The position numbers were made by a program, and so were the translations under genes. A stretch of 64,000 nucleotides of DNA, taken from NCBI RefSeq assembly GCF_020630935.1, contig NZ_JAHDIG010000005.1, positions 1-64,000 on the forward strand. The letters are read 5' to 3'. Each line of letters begins with the position of its first letter. The first letter of the stretch is position 1. The notes below the pieces were generated by a model, which was not told the origin of the DNA, searched no databases, and was given only the letters and a program-made list of their open reading frames with translations. Shown here one piece after another: positions 20,742 through 30,006 of this stretch. This DNA is from Bernardetia sp. (lineage in GTDB: Bacteria; Bacteroidota; Bacteroidia; Cytophagales; Bernardetiaceae).

Positions 20742-20772
20742 TTTCAATAAAAAAACTTATAAAACAAAAAAG

Positions 20773-20810
20773 GTCATTGACAAAATTAATTTGTCAATGA
20801 CTTTTTTTTA
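20773..20810. terminator. Bidirectional rho-independent terminator (12-bp stem GTCATTGACAAA/TTTGTCAATGAC) between convergent genes
   Basis: Perfect 12-bp stem with a 6-nt loop and T-runs on both sides. Confidence 0.6.
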
Positions 20811-21395
20811 TTTTTTGAGAGCTACCAAATGAATGGTAAGGTCAAAATTGTTATAGATAAATTTATCTTTGATTTGTCCTGTTACAGACTCTGCCATATA
20901 CGTTACGTCATATTCTGTTCTGTCAATGGTGAGCTCTAGGTCTGCAATAACTTGATTGTTTTGCATCTTGATTTTGGCTGGAAAACTAATTTGTTTGGTA
21001 ACATTCTTTATGGTCAAATTAGCTTTGACTTCGTAATTTTCTTCTCCTTTTGCTTCTACGTTCAAAATTTCTAATCTAGCTAGAGGAAATTTCTCTACAT
21101 CAAAAAAGTCTGCTGATTTTAGATGCGCTTCTAATTTTTGAGCTGTTTCTCTTTCTTCAATATCGGTACAAAAGATAGAATTCATATCTATATGTATTTT
21201 TCCTCCAGTAACTTTTTGATTTTCTGTAAGGATAATTCCTTCTTTAACCATAATTAGCCCTGTATGACTTCCTCCTAATTTTGAGCCTTCCCAAGTGATA
21301 CTAGAATCATTCGGACTGATATTATAGTTTGAAAGAGTAGAAAATGAAAAGCATATAAATGAAACAATAAGCAAGAGCAAAGAATATTTTTTCAT
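20808..21395 (-). CDS. YceI-like periplasmic polyisoprenoid-binding protein
   Basis: YceI family hallmarks (ITWEGSKLGGSHTG..., HIDMNSI..., FDVEKFP). Signal peptide from MKKYSLLLLIVSF (start 21395). Confidence 0.8.
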   Translation of the reverse strand: MKKYSLLLLIVSFICFSFSTLSNYNISPNDSSITWEGSKLGGSHTGLIMVKEGIILTENQKVTGGKIHIDMNSIFCTDIEERETAQKLEAHLKSADFFDVEKFPLARLEILNVEAKGEENYEVKANLTIKNVTKQISFPAKIKMQNNQVIADLELTIDRTEYDVTYMAESVTGQIKDKFIYNNFDLTIHLVALKK

Positions 21396-21496
21396 AGAAG
21401 ATTTGGAAATGAAATGAGAAAAATTAAAGATAACAAAAGACTGTACAAACTGTTGCACAATCAAATAAAGTATTTTATCCTTAAATTATCAAAATT

Positions 21497-23131: not shown

Positions 23132-24007
23132 TTACTTATTTCTATTTCTTGCTTTTCTCCATCTCACAATTCCAAAAATAACTCCAGCCAAAAGAAGCCA
23201 AAATACCCACAAACGCATTACTCCCACAACAAACATCAAGAAATCGTCCCAACCCTCTCCCATATTTTCCGACAAACGGCTAAAAAATGAACGCTCTGGT
23301 GGCTTAGAGTAATTATCTAATTTTTGAGTGAGTGTTAAATGAATTGTACTAAGTGAAATTTGGTCTTTCAAGTAGCGCAAACGTCCTTCTTTCGCCTCAA
23401 TTTCCTCACGAATGACACGCAGTTTGTCTTCAATTTCTAAAATTTCTGAAATGGTTTTGGCATTTTTTAAAAGTTCTGTATAGCGTTTTTCTACTTCTCT
23501 TTTTGTTTTTAGGCGTGCCTCAATATCTACAAACTCTTCACTAACATCTTGTGCGTCTTGCGATTGATTTTCAACAAACCCGATAGTAGTAAGCTCTTTC
23601 ATCAAGTTTTCAAAATTACTAGAAGCTACACGAATCGTTACAGTTTGTGTTTTTTGATAGCTATAATCATTATAATTTGCAGCCGAAGTAAAGCCTTTAT
23701 TTGCTTTTACTTTTTGCAAGACTTCTTCTTTAGCTTTGTCTAAATCCTGCACTCGCAAACTCATATTTCCTGTTTTGATGATATGAAGTCCCTGTACGAT
23801 GGGTTCTGTGCTTGTTCCTCCTCCTTCTGTTCCGTCTTGATAATTAGCAAAAGTAGCAACTGGTGATTTTGTTACAGGAATAGCCTCTTCTGTAAAATAA
23901 TCAGCACTTTCTGTTTTAGCTTGGTAAGAAGAATCTCCTTGACAAGAAGCAAAAAATGGAAGGAAAAGAATCCAAAAGTAAAGCGAAAATTTTAAGGTCG
24001 TTTTCAT
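23132..24007 (-). CDS. DUF4349-like lipoprotein (coiled-coil, C-terminal transmembrane anchor)
   Basis: Lipoprotein signal (FFASCQGDS), a central coiled-coil and a C-terminal hydrophobic helix. Architecture typical of DUF4349. Confidence 0.55.
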   Translation of the reverse strand: MKTTLKFSLYFWILFLPFFASCQGDSSYQAKTESADYFTEEAIPVTKSPVATFANYQDGTEGGGTSTEPIVQGLHIIKTGNMSLRVQDLDKAKEEVLQKVKANKGFTSAANYNDYSYQKTQTVTIRVASSNFENLMKELTTIGFVENQSQDAQDVSEEFVDIEARLKTKREVEKRYTELLKNAKTISEILEIEDKLRVIREEIEAKEGRLRYLKDQISLSTIHLTLTQKLDNYSKPPERSFFSRLSENMGEGWDDFLMFVVGVMRLWVFWLLLAGVIFGIVRWRKARNRNK

Positions 24008-24265: not shown

Positions 24266-25036
24266 ATGTTCAAAACAACTGAAATAACAGCCTATACAAT
24301 TCCTAGTGATAATGTAATCCATCAGCGTTTGCTTTTTGCGTATTACCAAACTGTAAAACATGTGAGTGGAAGTATTTTGGAGACAGGCTGTGGAGTGGGA
24401 AAAGGAGCAGAACTCTTTAAGCCTCATTGTACACATTATACAGCTCTTGATAAAAATCAAGAACTTATCAATCACCTTCAAAAACAGCATCCAGAATTTA
24501 CATTTCTAAATCAGAATATTCCTCCGTTTGCTAATCAAGCTGATGAGAGTTTTGATACGGTGGTTACGCAGCAGGTCATTGAGCATATTGAAGACGATAA
24601 TTTCTACCTCAAAGAAATTCAGAGAGTGTTGAAGAAAGGTGGGAAAATGATACTTACCACACCAAACATCAAGCTCTCACTCACACGCAATCCGTGGCAC
24701 GTAAGAGAATACACAGCGCAGGAATTGCAAACGCTTTTAGAAAAATATTTCTCAAAAGTAGATTTAAAAGGCATTACAGGCAATGAAAAAATTTGGGAAT
24801 ATTATGAGCAGAATAAAGCCTCAGTTGCCAAATACAAAAAGCTAGATGTTTTTAATTTGGAGCAAAATCTACCTAGACAAATTCTTCAAATTCCGTATGA
24901 TATTTTGAATAGAATGAATCGTAAAAAACTACAAGAGCAAGATAATTCTTTGGTAAGCTCAGTTACGATGGATGATTATTTCATTTCTGATGATGCAGAC
25001 AAATGTTTTGATTTCTTTGCTGTGGTGGAAAAGTAA
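24266..25036 (+). CDS. Class I SAM-dependent methyltransferase
   Basis: Motif I ILETGCGVGKGA and motif post-II LKKGGKMILTTPN. Confidence 0.8.
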   Translation: MFKTTEITAYTIPSDNVIHQRLLFAYYQTVKHVSGSILETGCGVGKGAELFKPHCTHYTALDKNQELINHLQKQHPEFTFLNQNIPPFANQADESFDTVVTQQVIEHIEDDNFYLKEIQRVLKKGGKMILTTPNIKLSLTRNPWHVREYTAQELQTLLEKYFSKVDLKGITGNEKIWEYYEQNKASVAKYKKLDVFNLEQNLPRQILQIPYDILNRMNRKKLQEQDNSLVSSVTMDDYFISDDADKCFDFFAVVEK

Positions 25037-25046
25037 AGTTTTATAA

Positions 25047-25083
25047 GCCTATTCTGATTTTTTGATTGGAATAGGTTTTTTTA
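25047..25083. terminator. Terminator hairpin (CCTATTC/GAATAGG plus T8) between convergent methyltransferase and AraC genes
   Basis: 7-bp stem followed by TTTTTTTT. It overlaps the araC stop codon. Confidence 0.5.
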
Positions 25084-26079
25084 TTCTTCTTCATTCTTAT
25101 TCTCTCCTTTTCCTCCCTGCTCATTCTTTTCGTTTTCCTGCTTTTGTTTGATTTGGAATTGCTTTGGCGTAATGCCTTCGTACTTTTTAAAGACACGAAT
25201 AAAATAGGTCATGTGATTATAGCCTAGCTCGTAGCAAATATCTGTAACTGACTTTGAAATATCTACCAGACGGTTTTTTGCAATTTCTACACGCTCTCTA
25301 TTGATGTAGTCTATCGGAGAAATATCTAAGGTTTCTTTGAAGGTTCTAAAAAATGCAGCCTTACTCATACTGGCAATATCAGTAAGCGTATCGATAGAAA
25401 TAGGCTCGTCGATGTGGTCTTTGATGTAATCTAGCACAGCCTCAATACTTGGGTTGGTTTCGCTTTGTTCTTCCTCGCTTTTTTCAATATCTATTTTATC
25501 TCGTGCTGGTGTTCGGACAAATCTCAGAATGAGTTCTTTGATAGCAAATTCTATGAATACCTCTTGATTGTAATGCTCTTCTACAAATAAATCTATAAGT
25601 CTTGTGATAGATTTTTTAATGCTCGTGTCGTGCGTAACATTGATTGGTGTTTCTCCAAATTGCCAATGCGAATTGTTTTCTACTTTTAGTTTGCAGCCTT
25701 CTAGTATTGCTCCTGTTTTGTTGTACTGTGAAATAGTTAGGTTGATAGTTTCTATTGGCACTTGAAGTTCTAACCACGAAATACTAGGTTTAGACTTACT
25801 TTTTTTAGTAGATTTTTCATCCGTATTTTTTGAGGCTTCCAAACGAACAGCCTTGTGAGGTGGAATTATTAAAGATTCGCCTACGGTGCAGGTTTGAGAA
25901 TATTCTTTCGCTTCAAAATTTATCTTTCCTTCCAAAATAGTTATGAGTGTAACTTTGTTGGTTTGTATAGTTTTGGGTTTGATAGAAGCTGATGCTTTTG
26001 CATTTTCGTCGTTCTGAATTAGAGATAACGACGTTCTACCCGATTGATAAGTTACTAAATGGAGAGGAGAAGCAGACAT
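25081..26079 (-). CDS. AraC-family transcriptional regulator (N-terminal cupin-like sensor, C-terminal HTH_18)
   Basis: C-terminal AraC HTH signature (ASMSKAAFFRTFKE...ICYELGYNHMTYFIRVFKKYEGITPKQF). Confidence 0.85.
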   Translation of the reverse strand: MSASPLHLVTYQSGRTSLSLIQNDENAKASASIKPKTIQTNKVTLITILEGKINFEAKEYSQTCTVGESLIIPPHKAVRLEASKNTDEKSTKKSKSKPSISWLELQVPIETINLTISQYNKTGAILEGCKLKVENNSHWQFGETPINVTHDTSIKKSITRLIDLFVEEHYNQEVFIEFAIKELILRFVRTPARDKIDIEKSEEEQSETNPSIEAVLDYIKDHIDEPISIDTLTDIASMSKAAFFRTFKETLDISPIDYINRERVEIAKNRLVDISKSVTDICYELGYNHMTYFIRVFKKYEGITPKQFQIKQKQENEKNEQGGKGENKNEEE

Positions 26080-26484
26080 AGAAGGAGTTATAAATCAGTG
26101 AAATGGCTTAAAATCTTAGCTACAAAATTATGTTTTTTTCCAAAACGAAACAATAGTATTACTTTTTGAACACTTTGTAACATTACTTTAGAAAATAGAG
26201 AATTTCGTATAATTTTTACTAATTACTTTACCGTAATTTTGTTATGTACTAGAGAAGAAAAGTATTGTTTAACATACAGACTAAACAAGATACAATTTTT
26301 CTACTACAAATTTGGAATAAAACACAGAAAATAGTTTTACACACACAGGAATATACAACACACACTCATATTTACTGAAAACTATTTTCAATCCAACATA
26401 AAGGTTTTAATGAGATTTTGTTTTCATTTATTTGGAACGCTTTTTTGACCTTACACACAATACCACAAACACACACACCAATCA

Positions 26485-26526
26485 AAAGGCTTGTTCTACT
26501 TGTAGAATGAGCCTTTTGTTGTTTTA
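26485..26526 (+). terminator. Strong intrinsic-terminator-like hairpin (15-bp stem with two G-U pairs, UUG loop, then U-tract) ~70 nt upstream of the pentapeptide-repeat gene start
   Basis: AAAGGCTTGTTCTAC ttg TAGAATGAGCCTTT followed by TGTTGTTTT. No + strand gene lies upstream, so this suggests a leader/attenuator or an sRNA 3' end. Confidence 0.45.
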
Positions 26527-26596
26527 CTAGTAAAGTATAATTCGTTTTTGATAACTTTGCTTTTAGCTTTTATCAGAAAACATATTTTAAATTAAA

Positions 26597-27166
26597 ATGT
26601 CAGATTATACATTTTCAAAAGTATTTAAGAATATAAATTTTTCAGAGCAAGAATTTCCCACAGGAGAGTATGAAGAATGTAGTTTTCAAAACTGTATTTT
26701 TAGAAATAGTAATTTATCACATTCTAAATTTATCAACTGCGATTTTGAAAGTTGCGATTTATCTAGCATAAAATTAGGTGAGACTTCATTGCAAGAAATT
26801 ACTATCAAAAATTCTAAGTTGCTTGGGGTGGTATTTTCAGACTGTACTAATTTTTTGCTATCTATACACTTTATTCATTGCTTACTTGACTTTTCATCTT
26901 TCTATCAGCTAAATCTTAAAGATTTTAAATTCAAGAATTGTAGCCTTAAAGATGTCGATTTTACAGAAGCAAATCTTAAAAAAGTAGCTTTTGAAGACTG
27001 CAATTTGATAGGAGCTACTTTTGAGAATACCGTTTTAGAAAGTGCAGATTTTCGAAGTGCAACAAATTATTCTATCAATCCTGCAAAAAATAAAATCAAA
27101 AAAGCAAAATTTTCTAGTCAAGAAGTAAAAGGACTCTTGGATAGTTATGATATTTTGATTGAATGA
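26597..27166 (+). CDS. Pentapeptide-repeat protein (Qnr/MfpA-like fold)
   Basis: Consecutive A(D/N)LXX-type pentapeptides throughout (CSFQNCIFRNSNLSHSKFINCDFESCDLSSIKL...). Confidence 0.8.
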   Translation: MSDYTFSKVFKNINFSEQEFPTGEYEECSFQNCIFRNSNLSHSKFINCDFESCDLSSIKLGETSLQEITIKNSKLLGVVFSDCTNFLLSIHFIHCLLDFSSFYQLNLKDFKFKNCSLKDVDFTEANLKKVAFEDCNLIGATFENTVLESADFRSATNYSINPAKNKIKKAKFSSQEVKGLLDSYDILIE

Positions 27167-27522: not shown

Positions 27523-30006
27523 TTACTCTTTACTTTCTGTATTTTCAGGCAATTTCAAGCTATCCAAAACGCTGCTGAGTTGTGTGCCTTTCAGAAGATT
27601 TGCAAACACGTCTGCCACAGAGTTTCCTCCCAAAATTGCGAGTGGAGCCATCGAATCTGCCATTTTTTGAGCAAGTGCTTTATCAGAAAACGATTGCAAG
27701 GCTGCAATAAGGTCTGGAGAAACAGCTTTTGCTTTGGCTACTACTGCCTCTACTTCTGTTTGTTCTTCCAAAATGTACTGCTCTAGCTGTTTTTGAGCTT
27801 TTTCTATCTCAACGGCATCTTTAGCTCTTTGTCTAGTAAGTTCGTCTTCATTGATTTGATTGAGCGTTTTTTGTTCGTCTAAATTAGCTTGTAAATGACG
27901 CTCCTTACTCATTATTTCACTTTCAATTTTAGATAAAGTAACTTCTAAGAGTTTTTTGACTTCTTCTTTTTGAAGTTCGTAGATTTTCTGCTTAGTTTCA
28001 GATTGTGTAGCTGCGATTTGTCTTGTAATGGCTTCGCTTTCTTGTGTAAATTCTAATTTTCGTTTTTCAGCATTTATGCGAAGTGTTTGCATAACTGTAT
28101 CTTGCTGTGAAGAAATAAGTAGATTTTCAATATTTGCATCACCCAAACTTATATCCAAAATCTCAACGTCGTAGATACGCATTCCATTTTCTTCAAAAAG
28201 TCGTCCTGTGCGTTTCCCTGTTTTCTTGTCAGACTCTCCTAAAATAGCATCTCTCAAAATCGTAATTCCATTGGCATAAAATTCCATAATTGGATATCTT
28301 CTGACAGTATTTCGGATATACGAACGCATGTGGTCTGTTAAAAATTTGACATAGTTTTCCACATTAAACCACTTTTCAGAATCTCCTTCAAAATTGACAC
28401 GATACGAAAGATGTATTCTAACTTGCGTGTAATCTGCCGATTCTGCCATTATCTCATCCGAAACTTTATTATACAACACTCTCAAATAAACCGTTTTGAT
28501 AGAATTTGCTGTTGTTTTTGGTGTTCCTGTTGAAAGCTCTATACCTTCTAATTCTTCATCGTATTCCAAAAGATACGATTGAGGACCTTCAATGACTTTT
28601 CGTTTTCCTGTCTTGCTAACCACTAAAACAGCATATCCTGTCCAAGGCGCAATCGTAACAGCTCCTTCAAATTTTGTATCTAATGTCACCATACGAGGTG
28701 GCGTAAACGAACTATCACGATTAAATTCGTCGCTTACTACTTCGTCTGCAATCTTAGCTTTTTTTCGTAATTGTTGTTGTGGAGCTTCTGGTGCTTGATT
28801 TTGTTCTTGTAATTCAAAATCAGTAACGAAATTATCGTTTTTAGCAATACTTTGCATCGCCATATTGTACTCCATTGCTTCATTGTTATTTGGAAACCAA
28901 AGTGATGTTTGCTTTTTTGTCAAAACTCTTCGTACCAAAACAAATTCTCTTGGGTCTGGCAAAAACATCGCTGCACCTTTTTTGAGAGCGACTGTTCCTG
29001 TTTTACGATTGAGGTAATAACGTCCTTCTCCTGCTGGAATAGCAATGGCATAATGACGTTCTTTTTTTCCATAACGAATAATGGCGTGTTCTGGGCGAGG
29101 ATAATAAATCATTTGGTCTTTTCCAGTAATGAAAAGCTCGTCGCCTTCTTTATACTCGTTTTTTCCTTCTTTATAAGGAGCAATGACTTTTATATAGAGT
29201 CCACTCATTTCATTGAGTTCGATGGCTTTAAATTTTCGTTGTCCATTTTTCTCAATAAACTCTTCTGTTGGTTCTGGAAAGACTACTTTTGGACCTTGAA
29301 TATAGCGTTTGTTTCCATCTTCGTTGAGCAAAATACAGTATTCCAAACGTTCTAAAGTTACAGCCTCTCGCACATATTCATCTGTTTCGTAACCGTATGA
29401 GTCTGTTCTGACCACTTCAATTCCTGTGGGTGGAATATAAAACGAAACAGCATCGCCACGAATAATCAGAAGCTGACCCATTGTAAGACTTTCAGCTACT
29501 TTTTTGAGTTCTTTTACTTCTTTATCCTCTCCTTCTTTTGTTTTGATGACGGATTTACCCCAATTTTCTCGTGCTTGTTGTTCATCATACACACGAACCA
29601 ATAAATATTGATTCGAACTCAAATTATGTCCTCTGACTACTCTTGCCATTTGTCCAGCCCAAAGTGCAAAAGAAATAGGACCTGAAATATTTACTTTTCT
29701 TCCTACATTGAGTTCGGCTAAATTGTTACTTGTTCCTACTTTTGGTGGGTTATTATCTTTTGAAGGGTTTTTCAAAACTATATACCATCCTTCTGGTGCA
29801 ATGACAAAAGAACGCATCGAATCTTCTAAAGTACATTTTTCGAAACGTTTGGTTTCGTCGTCGAACATCACAGGACGGTCAGTATTGGCAAGGCTAGTTT
29901 TGTAAGGACCTACATAAACATTGATATTTCCTTTAGTTTGGTCAGAAATAAATGCGTACTCATTAGGAGCTAAAACTAAATCTCTTTCTCGGTTACTATC
30001 AGACAT
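27523..30006 (-). CDS. Major vault protein (MVP) homolog
   Basis: N-terminus PNEYAFISDQTKGNINVYVGPYKTSL...RPVMFDDE parallels the first MVP repeat of eukaryotic MVP ([36 protein letters not shown]). About 8 tandem ~55-aa repeats, a shoulder region, a long C-terminal coiled-coil cap-helix, and a C-terminal ...PLAILGGNSVADVFANLL region resembling the MVP cap ring. Confidence 0.8.
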   Translation of the reverse strand: MSDSNRERDLVLAPNEYAFISDQTKGNINVYVGPYKTSLANTDRPVMFDDETKRFEKCTLEDSMRSFVIAPEGWYIVLKNPSKDNNPPKVGTSNNLAELNVGRKVNISGPISFALWAGQMARVVRGHNLSSNQYLLVRVYDEQQARENWGKSVIKTKEGEDKEVKELKKVAESLTMGQLLIIRGDAVSFYIPPTGIEVVRTDSYGYETDEYVREAVTLERLEYCILLNEDGNKRYIQGPKVVFPEPTEEFIEKNGQRKFKAIELNEMSGLYIKVIAPYKEGKNEYKEGDELFITGKDQMIYYPRPEHAIIRYGKKERHYAIAIPAGEGRYYLNRKTGTVALKKGAAMFLPDPREFVLVRRVLTKKQTSLWFPNNNEAMEYNMAMQSIAKNDNFVTDFELQEQNQAPEAPQQQLRKKAKIADEVVSDEFNRDSSFTPPRMVTLDTKFEGAVTIAPWTGYAVLVVSKTGKRKVIEGPQSYLLEYDEELEGIELSTGTPKTTANSIKTVYLRVLYNKVSDEIMAESADYTQVRIHLSYRVNFEGDSEKWFNVENYVKFLTDHMRSYIRNTVRRYPIMEFYANGITILRDAILGESDKKTGKRTGRLFEENGMRIYDVEILDISLGDANIENLLISSQQDTVMQTLRINAEKRKLEFTQESEAITRQIAATQSETKQKIYELQKEEVKKLLEVTLSKIESEIMSKERHLQANLDEQKTLNQINEDELTRQRAKDAVEIEKAQKQLEQYILEEQTEVEAVVAKAKAVSPDLIAALQSFSDKALAQKMADSMAPLAILGGNSVADVFANLLKGTQLSSVLDSLKLPENTESKE

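Follow-up and report, generated by a model that had tools for sequence, protein, structure and literature searches.

What occupies the 517 bp of DNA (26080-26596) between a gene for an AraC-family transcriptional regulator on the - strand and a pentapeptide-repeat gene on the + strand of a Bernardetia genome: a leader that controls the second gene, or a gene of its own? The 64-kb stretch in which this intergenic region lies, called the window throughout, is low in G+C and its genes are closest to those of Bernardetia (Bernardetiaceae, Cytophagales, Bacteroidota). An earlier note on this DNA had described a divergent region of ~520 bp shared with the AraC-family regulator, a hairpin in it and a + strand gene starting ~70 nucleotides (nt) further on; we find the genes placed as claimed, with the ATG of the pentapeptide-repeat gene 71 nt after the U tract of the hairpin. 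The note had left two readings side by side, a riboswitch or attenuator leader of the pentapeptide-repeat gene and an independent small RNA (sRNA) ending just before it. Our analysis argues for the second, on the basis of a promoter box found by comparison, covariation, G-U pairs, the lack of a conserved open reading frame (ORF) and the point at which conservation ends. Positions 26245-26525 of the + strand very likely form an independent RNA gene linked to the AraC gene. For the locus overall, the best explanation, and in our judgement a probable one, is a free-standing RNA gene of ~280 nt which, together with the divergent AraC gene, makes up a conserved two-gene unit of the Bernardetiaceae. 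Its product would be a CA-rich non-coding RNA, previously undescribed and matched by no Rfam family or paper, that appears always to stand back-to-back with the AraC gene in Bernardetia-type bacteria.

Conservation with the AraC gene

First of all, the element accompanies the AraC gene. This gene (25081-26079, - strand) encodes 332 amino acids (aa) with Pfam matches to HTH_18 (5.6e-20), HTH_AraC and, weakly, ExsA_N. Our comparison comprises 13 loci, the window and 12 others (L044 and L048-L058), of which ten are of Bernardetia type and three are distant (L055-L057). A metagenome scan with the AraC protein yielded three identical contigs (77% aa identity), in which the element is conserved whole to the U tract, the sequence past the U tract is unalignable, and the next gene is convergent and encodes a receptor-like protein of 770 aa. 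The genomic context of nine further AraC orthologues was also examined, among them four Bernardetia genomes (OM2101, ABR2-2B, MNP-M8 and B. litoralis) and two distant ones. The orthologues share 69-81% aa identity in Bernardetia, and the distant ones, from Hugenholtzia roseola and from metagenome-assembled genome (MAG) material of Bernardetiaceae, share 44-45%. The element lies upstream of, and divergent to, the AraC gene in 13 of 13 loci, within a gene-free stretch of 440-970 bp.

Second, the gene on the other side is not kept. Ten kinds of gene stand beyond the terminator in the 13 loci: the pentapeptide-repeat gene in the window, a receptor-like gene (770 aa) in L044, a gene for a 185-aa protein of unassigned function in L048 and L052, NTP_transf_9 in L049, a RimB-like gene in L050, a DPP-IV peptidase gene in L051 and L058, and genes for an LRR protein in L053, an MmeI-type enzyme in L054, an acyl-CoA dehydrogenase in L055 and L056 and a WYL protein in L057. 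This next gene is convergent in seven loci and co-directional in six (the window, L049, L051, L055, L056 and L058). In the alignments of relatives, sequence conservation stops at the U tract, and nothing beyond it is alignable. What is kept as a block is the unit; the gene outside it is replaced from locus to locus.

Third, part of the element reaches beyond Bernardetia. The distant loci keep the promoter architecture, a (C/U)UUU(U/C)GACC box, a long CA tract and then a terminator of different sequence, the rest of the body being different. A covariance model built from the Bernardetia-type sequences alone has its top match at the expected place and on the expected strand in each distant locus (E 0.003-0.018 in 17.7 kb). 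Promoter and terminator aside, all that the three clades have in common in the RNA body is the 3' CA tract and the UUUUUGACC box.

Candidate promoter and upstream boxes

The -7 promoter consensus of Bacteroidetes is TAnnTTTG, and the candidate promoter of the RNA is a perfect -7 box, TAATTTTG, at 26234-26241 on the + strand. In the form TAA[AT]TTTG it is invariant in the ten Bernardetia-type loci; it reads TAACTTTG in L055 and L056 (the Hugenholtzia form) and CACCTTTG in L057. Transcription would start ~4-8 nt after TAATTTTG, near 26245 (predicted start ~26245-26249), and end at the U tract; the predicted + strand RNA would have its start a few nt past TAAATTTG and its 3' end within the U tract, with an expected length of ~350 nt in B. 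litoralis.

Two related boxes, 51 bp apart, precede this promoter. The distal box GTATTACTTTT (26156-26166, + strand), a candidate regulator-binding site, lies inside the conserved block AAACGAAACAATAGTATTACTTTTTGAA; a box related to it stands 78 nt before the -7 box in seven of the ten Bernardetia-type loci, the spacing being 79 in L044 and 69 in L051, with L053 unmatched. The proximal box GTATAATTTTT (26207-26217, + strand) overlaps the -33 region and is a candidate activator site or promoter part; its start lies exactly 27 nt ahead of the -7 box in every one of the 13 loci, the three distant ones included. The first 150 bp next to the AraC start, in which boxes are repeated, are highly conserved. 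We propose that the two conserved GTAT(T/A)A(C/T)TTTT boxes are binding sites of the AraC-family protein, through which it controls the RNA promoter: the proximal one, fixed at 27 nt from the -7 box, would lie across the -33 region, which is where AraC-type activators sit. By analogy with other divergent regulator/sRNA pairs, the protein probably controls its own promoter too.

The proximal box (26207-26217) also contains TAATTTTT, which agrees with the -7 consensus at 7 of 8 positions and lies 24 nt ahead of the perfect box, so that a start of the RNA ~20 nt earlier, or two starts, would be possible. Other promoters were considered and set aside. In the block CAAGATACAATTTTTCTAYCACAAATTTGG the TTTG-like part of a second promoter varies (AAATTG, AACTTG, GTTTTG), whereas TAA[AT]TTTG is invariant. 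A sigma-70-like TTAACA-16-TACAAT at 26269-26296 has a first hexamer that is not conserved and is not this phylum's promoter type. As an AraC promoter, a - strand TAATTTTG at 26123-26130 is not conserved in the orthologues and was thus left at low confidence.

Terminator

The 3' end of the element is an intrinsic terminator on the + strand, identified by energy, pairing and conservation (stem-loop 26483-26518, U tract 26514-26525). Its stem, which is stable and contains G+C, has 16-17 pairs including two G-U pairs and carries a CUUG loop of 4 nt, or of 2 nt should the closing C-G pair form; it is followed by TTTTGTTGTTTT, ending at 26525, the U tract reading UUUUGUUGUUUU. The hairpin has a minimum free energy (MFE) of -21.7 kcal/mol (z = -6.06), a stability that none of 200 shuffles equals; on the reverse strand the hairpin is weaker, at -17.8 kcal/mol. 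The generic terminator pattern is not above chance in a 5-kb stretch, with 4 found against 2.8 expected: the hairpin is distinguished by energy and conservation, not by that pattern.

Pairing is kept in the relatives. In the terminator helix 98.2% of cells are paired and three pairs show compensatory changes, including C-G to U-A in L052 and L053, where the stem is also longer; L055-L057 have a hairpin of different sequence at the same position. The hairpin, which the earlier note had described as a near-ideal intrinsic terminator, is thus confirmed. The details that the note gave (a 15-bp stem, a UUG loop, 26485-26526) were correct as to the two G-U pairs and good to within 1-2 nt in coordinates and size.

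Copies of the hairpin with up to 3 mismatches were sought elsewhere in the window and none was found, and on this ground the idea of a repeat or mobile element was rejected. The covariance model has only one other match in the window, a weak one at 20761-20849 (- strand; 33.9 bits); considered as a second copy, it proved to be an ordinary terminator after an ORF (20808-21464) with a chance TTTTGACCTTACC.

Structure of the predicted RNA

The predicted non-coding RNA (26245-26525, + strand, ~280 nt) is supported by alignments, identity, the lack of a conserved ORF and a G-U bias. The stretch from the -7 box to the end of the terminator measures 284 nt in the window. Its length varies among the other Bernardetia-type loci (299-446 nt), is smallest in L057 (178 nt) and comes to ~700 nt in L055 and L056. 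Covariation was assessed on the ten Bernardetia-type sequences, by an RNAalifold consensus and pair counts with shuffled and slid-partner controls.

The consensus begins with a 5' helix on the + strand (26245-26257 with 26296-26308, spanning 26245-26308), whose loop holds a variable insertion in relatives. In this helix 96.6% of cells are paired, three pairs have changed on both sides, and the covariation score is 0.287 against at most 0.202 with slid partners. Stem-loop SL1 (26327-26389, + strand) follows, with an outer helix (26327-26338/26378-26389), the arms of which form a perfect 12-nt inverted repeat, and an inner helix (26346-26354/26368-26377); CA tracts occupy its internal loop (26339-26345) and its apical loop (26355-26367). 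The helices at SL1 are 93-98% paired, and two outer-helix pairs show compensatory changes, from A-U to G-C in three loci and from G-C to A-U in L051. A further + strand helix, predicted by RNAalifold, joins AAGGUU (26401-26406) to GACCUU (26447-26452), spans 26401-26452 and has invariant pairs; the GACCUU arm is part of the family-wide box CUUUUUGACC (26440-26450), which is also kept in L055, L056 and L057. Taken together, SL1, the invariant helix and the terminator have 97.0% of cells paired and five pairs changed on both sides, a number reached by 2 of 500 shuffles, and score 0.162 for covariation against at most 0.084 with slid partners. Because MAFFT misplaced the 5' arm of SL1 in L049 by one column, these pair counts are slightly too low and leave out one A-U to G-C change that is seen by eye.

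The CA tracts are the other conspicuous part of the RNA. An unusual CA-dinucleotide-rich tract upstream of the hairpin, to which the earlier note had drawn attention, is confirmed as extreme for the 64-kb window: 26335-26370 and 26445-26487 are the only places on either strand where 30-nt windows hold at least 16 CA/AC steps, the maximum being 20 and the 99.9th percentile 12 over the whole 64 kb. CACACACA occurs twice in the window, both copies inside the CA-rich element, where the density of ACA motifs is 5.4 times that of the window. The separate CA tracts number two to four per RNA and are held in loops or between helices. Foremost is the 3' CA tract ACACACAATACCACAAACACACACACCAAT (26453-26482, + strand), 30 nt with 16 A, 12 C, 2 T and no G, which stands directly before the terminator and, in both the MFE and the consensus folds, is unpaired between the GACCUU arm and the terminator. 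This tract is a candidate interaction surface of the RNA.

Strand, coding potential and selection

Among the paired positions of the helices there are 44 G-U cells and 4 A-C cells; this makes the helices 97.0% paired when read as + strand and 87.8% when read as - strand. Mean identity over aligned columns is 82% for the element and 89% for its 3' module; in the same genome pairs, third codon positions of the AraC gene are 64% identical. No conserved ORF was found in the element. The only recurrent one, of 12 aa, is interrupted by a stop or lacks an ATG in six of ten loci, and indels of 1 and 2 nt break the frame within conserved blocks; on these grounds a small-protein gene was rejected. Compensatory changes, the excess of G-U over A-C cells, the lack of a conserved ORF and the higher identity than at AraC third codon positions thus point to a non-coding RNA of the + strand. 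As a trans-acting sRNA gene would, it lies in an intergenic region with its own terminator and, judged by motif, its own promoter, it is non-coding, and its structure is conserved under selection apart from the flanking genes.

The recurrent ORF, with an ATG and 12 codons (MRFCFHLFGTLF; 26410-26448, + strand), is identical in L058 and lengthened in L044 and L051. Gene callers have put short ORFs of 31, 87 and 82 aa on the element (26088-26183 on the - strand, which is L001 2149-2244, and L056 1568-1831 and 2071-2319); they are probably spurious, since none is conserved.

Several points weigh against an independent RNA gene of this kind or against parts of the proposal. The covariation comes from only ten moderately diverged sequences, and independent events are few, because several of the compensatory changes are common to the close relatives L044, L048 and L058. 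The helix 26401-26406/26447-26452 is unproven, because its invariance gives no covariation for or against it. The model scores at the distant loci are modest (21-26 bits), and only the 3' module is clearly one family across genera, because the 5' part ranges from 178 to ~700 nt. TAnnTTTG is only mildly enriched overall in the window (131 found against 99 expected), and the RNA promoter and transcript ends are predicted from motifs. What suggests regulation by the AraC protein is linkage and conserved boxes. Finally, the 64-kb window holds no convincing target, the best translation-start duplex having -10 kcal/mol.

Possible action of the RNA and its known counterparts

If the RNA gene is independent, the chances that its product works by base-pairing seem to us about even. 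The RNA would act in trans through its unpaired, G-poor CA tracts, the 30-nt tract between helix and terminator foremost; its most likely action would be base-pairing with G/U-rich stretches of target mRNAs, the alternative being the sequestering of a factor. When the 64-kb window was scanned with the 3' CA tract, the best duplex at a start region had -10.1 kcal/mol and was not distinctive; the second best, at -9.9 kcal/mol and not significant, lies at the start region of the methyltransferase gene that adjoins the AraC gene.

The alternative of sequestering is the rival that survives best, and it leaves the RNA gene as it is. Here the CA tracts would serve as a decoy or sponge that titrates a protein with a preference for C/A-rich single strands or a G/U-rich regulatory RNA, or that competes for the translation machinery with C/A-rich elements in the leaders of mRNAs, with no direct regulation of mRNAs by pairing. 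The number of CA tracts and their exposure in loops or between helices, the density of ACA motifs, and a length of 280-700 nt, more typical of sponge RNAs than of seed-type sRNAs, all speak for it, and precedents exist. CrcZ, an RNA of 407 nt, titrates Hfq through six A-rich motifs (PMC4063720), and CA-rich/ACA elements of mRNA leaders, which enhance translation, are bound by the G/U-rich R1 seed of GcvB (PMC3879156). On the other hand, the CrcZ-type AAnAAnAA or (A-R-N)n motif is absent from the conserved tracts: the RNA of the window lacks it altogether, and its relatives show only scattered A-runs that lie outside the conserved CA tracts. L057 has a single CA tract, and the data are equally compatible with base-pairing. 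No partner protein is known, and Bacteroidota are generally reported to lack Hfq; they are also not known to use Shine-Dalgarno-led initiation. We regard this alternative as doubtful. A more specific form of it, in which a CA-repeat decoy under the control of its AraC partner titrates a global factor that recognizes C/A-rich single strands (a protein, a G/U-rich RNA or the initiating ribosome), strikes us as unlikely; if true, the RNA and its factor would correspond in function to CrcZ/Hfq or CsrB/CsrA, but with different components.

Whichever way it acts, the predicted RNA gene would be a computational candidate of a familiar kind, the regulator-linked sRNA. Divergent regulator/sRNA pairs are known in Proteobacteria, namely OxyR/OxyS, GcvA/GcvB and SgrR/SgrS. 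As here, a regulator gene and a terminator-ended sRNA gene stand back-to-back in these pairs, share a control region and are kept as a unit. Unlike them, the present pair combines an AraC/XylS regulator with a longer, C/A-rich RNA, in Bacteroidota and with TAnnTTTG promoters, and the dependence of the RNA promoter on the regulator is here a proposal from sequence comparison. In Escherichia coli, GadY overlaps the 3' end of gadX in antisense; it is likewise an sRNA gene tied to a gene for an AraC-family regulator, but the RNA described here is divergent from the 5' end of its AraC gene and does not overlap the predicted AraC transcript. CrcZ, CrcY and CrcX of Pseudomonas resemble the RNA in having several hundred nt, several unpaired motifs that contain A and C, and a terminator (PMC4063720). 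CrcZ is driven by CbrAB/RpoN, whereas the RNA here has an AraC-type neighbour and lacks AAnAAnAA/(A-R-N)n motifs in its conserved tracts, and no similarity to CrcZ-type RNAs was found by sequence or in Rfam. The CA elements targeted by GcvB share the unstructured, CA-repeat-rich recognition surface; they lie in mRNA leaders by ribosome-binding sites, whereas the tract here lies in a non-coding RNA by its terminator.

No match to Rfam 15 was obtained at gathering score in the whole window or in six homologous loci. At E values up to 10, the matches within 25900-26800 are due to chance or shaped like terminators, the best, which is on the wrong strand, having 24.4 bits where the threshold is 49. 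Among the Bacteroidota RNAs of Rfam 15 (for example Bacteroides sRNAs, Flavo-1 and 6S-Flavo), which share the phylum and an intrinsic terminator with the RNA, no model matches, and sub-threshold similarity is to the hairpin only. A scan for tRNA and tmRNA gave none. Our search of the literature for sRNAs of Bernardetia or Cytophagales, or for CA-rich sRNAs in Bacteroidetes, gave nothing relevant. Very little work has been done on post-transcriptional control in Bacteroidota other than the gut Bacteroides, and we found none described for the Cytophagales. With its family-wide conservation, predicted promoter, covarying helices, exposed CA surface and a likely regulator next door, the RNA is a candidate for study, and B. 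litoralis, a cultured and sequenced species, carries the AraC/RNA unit.

Readings without an independent RNA gene

Could the conservation be that of DNA rather than of an RNA? In such a reading the region would be an AraC operator and promoter followed by a bidirectional insulating terminator, with the CA tracts as protein-binding or structural DNA. The strong conservation and repeated boxes of the 150 bp by the AraC start would suit an operator, and the hairpin, which folds on the - strand also (at the -17.8 kcal/mol given above), could terminate the convergent gene as well, which in seven loci ends 13-106 nt from it. Yet conservation runs 280-450 bp past any plausible operator, the pairing of helices is kept through compensatory changes, and the one-sided excess of G-U pairs is not what selection on DNA predicts. 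Furthermore, the invariant -7 box points away from the AraC gene, the conserved + strand U tract is the exact end of conservation, and six loci, the window among them, lack a convergent gene that the hairpin could terminate. We hold this reading to be very unlikely.

The leader reading, by which a cis-acting element would control the pentapeptide-repeat gene (26597-27166, + strand) by conditional termination at 26525, draws on the position of the terminator 71 nt upstream of this gene on the same strand. The next gene is also co-directional in L049, L051, L055, L056 and L058, and some read-through is conceivable. The comparison speaks against it. Conservation of the leader upstream of pentapeptide orthologues was a check that the earlier note had suggested, and the element is absent there: the closest orthologues (68-69% aa identity), in L002 (Bernardetia sp.) and L003 (a Cytophagales MAG), have a different gene of the same strand in front of them, across a spacer of 25-105 nt, and no such element. 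A covariance model of the 3' module, run on 42 pentapeptide loci, gave only noise-level matches (E >=0.5), none upstream of the gene. Conversely, the element occurs in 12 loci without a pentapeptide-repeat gene, in seven of them with a convergent neighbour; the downstream gene is thus not constant, as that of a cis-regulatory leader would be. Nor is the way from terminator to gene free of promoter motifs. A -7 box, TAACTTTG, a perfect match to TAnnTTTG, lies at 26552-26559 (+ strand), outside the RNA unit and past the terminator, and ends 37 nt before the ATG (26597). Of 44 genes of the window, nine have such a box ending 10-80 nt ahead of the start codon, where ~7% would be expected, and in these the distance is always 30-80 nt; the stretch with the pentapeptide -7 box is not conserved in any relative. 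The pentapeptide-repeat gene would accordingly have a -7 box of its own, 26 nt beyond the terminator, and be an accidental neighbour. The Rfam scan of the leader, also suggested earlier, matched no riboswitch or leader family, and the RNAalifold consensus proposed no conserved pairing that competes for the terminator arms, although no dedicated search for alternative folds was run. Contradicted already by these comparative data, control of the pentapeptide-repeat gene in this way is most improbable, and the annotation changes as a result: the gene would not be under a leader or attenuator, and the ORFs that gene finders put on the element are probably spurious.

Weakest of all, with next to no probability, is the view that the functional strand is the - strand, as a long structured 5' leader of the AraC mRNA, or that the region encodes a small protein: the region does lie directly upstream of the AraC gene, the 12-aa ATG ORF (26410-26448) recurs in a few loci, and gene callers placed short ORFs on the element, but on the - strand the 44 G-U cells become A-C mismatches and the promoter would have to lie in non-conserved DNA past the hairpin, and the small protein is opposed by the loss of its ORF in six of ten loci and the frame-breaking indels in conserved blocks.

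Neighbouring genes

The DNA just past the terminator (26526-26600 in the window, and its counterparts in L044 and L048-L058) is a rearrangement hot spot, altered in nearly all the genomes compared, and the pentapeptide-repeat gene appears to be one of many that have come to stand there. A DPP-IV peptidase gene, found directly past the terminator in L051 and L058, stands behind one to three inserted genes in L048, L052 and L053; it may thus be the ancestral neighbour. Mobile and defence genes flank the AraC/RNA unit in L048 (3606-4361), L044 (4075-6571), L052 and L058 (both from ~3600) and L054 (1-1961), the types being an IS1-family transposase, Eco57I/TaqI_C-type and SwaI-like restriction-modification genes and an MmeI-type enzyme.

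Downstream of the AraC gene lie a class-I methyltransferase gene (24266-25036, + strand) and a DUF4349 gene (23132-24007, - strand). Both are likewise found downstream of the AraC gene in L053, and the methyltransferase gene is found behind an IS1 insertion in L048, so that this side is partly syntenic. Finally, 27523-30006 on the - strand encodes a protein of 827 aa with Pfam matches to MVP_shoulder (1.9e-32) and Vault_3, a bacterial homologue of the eukaryotic major vault protein.

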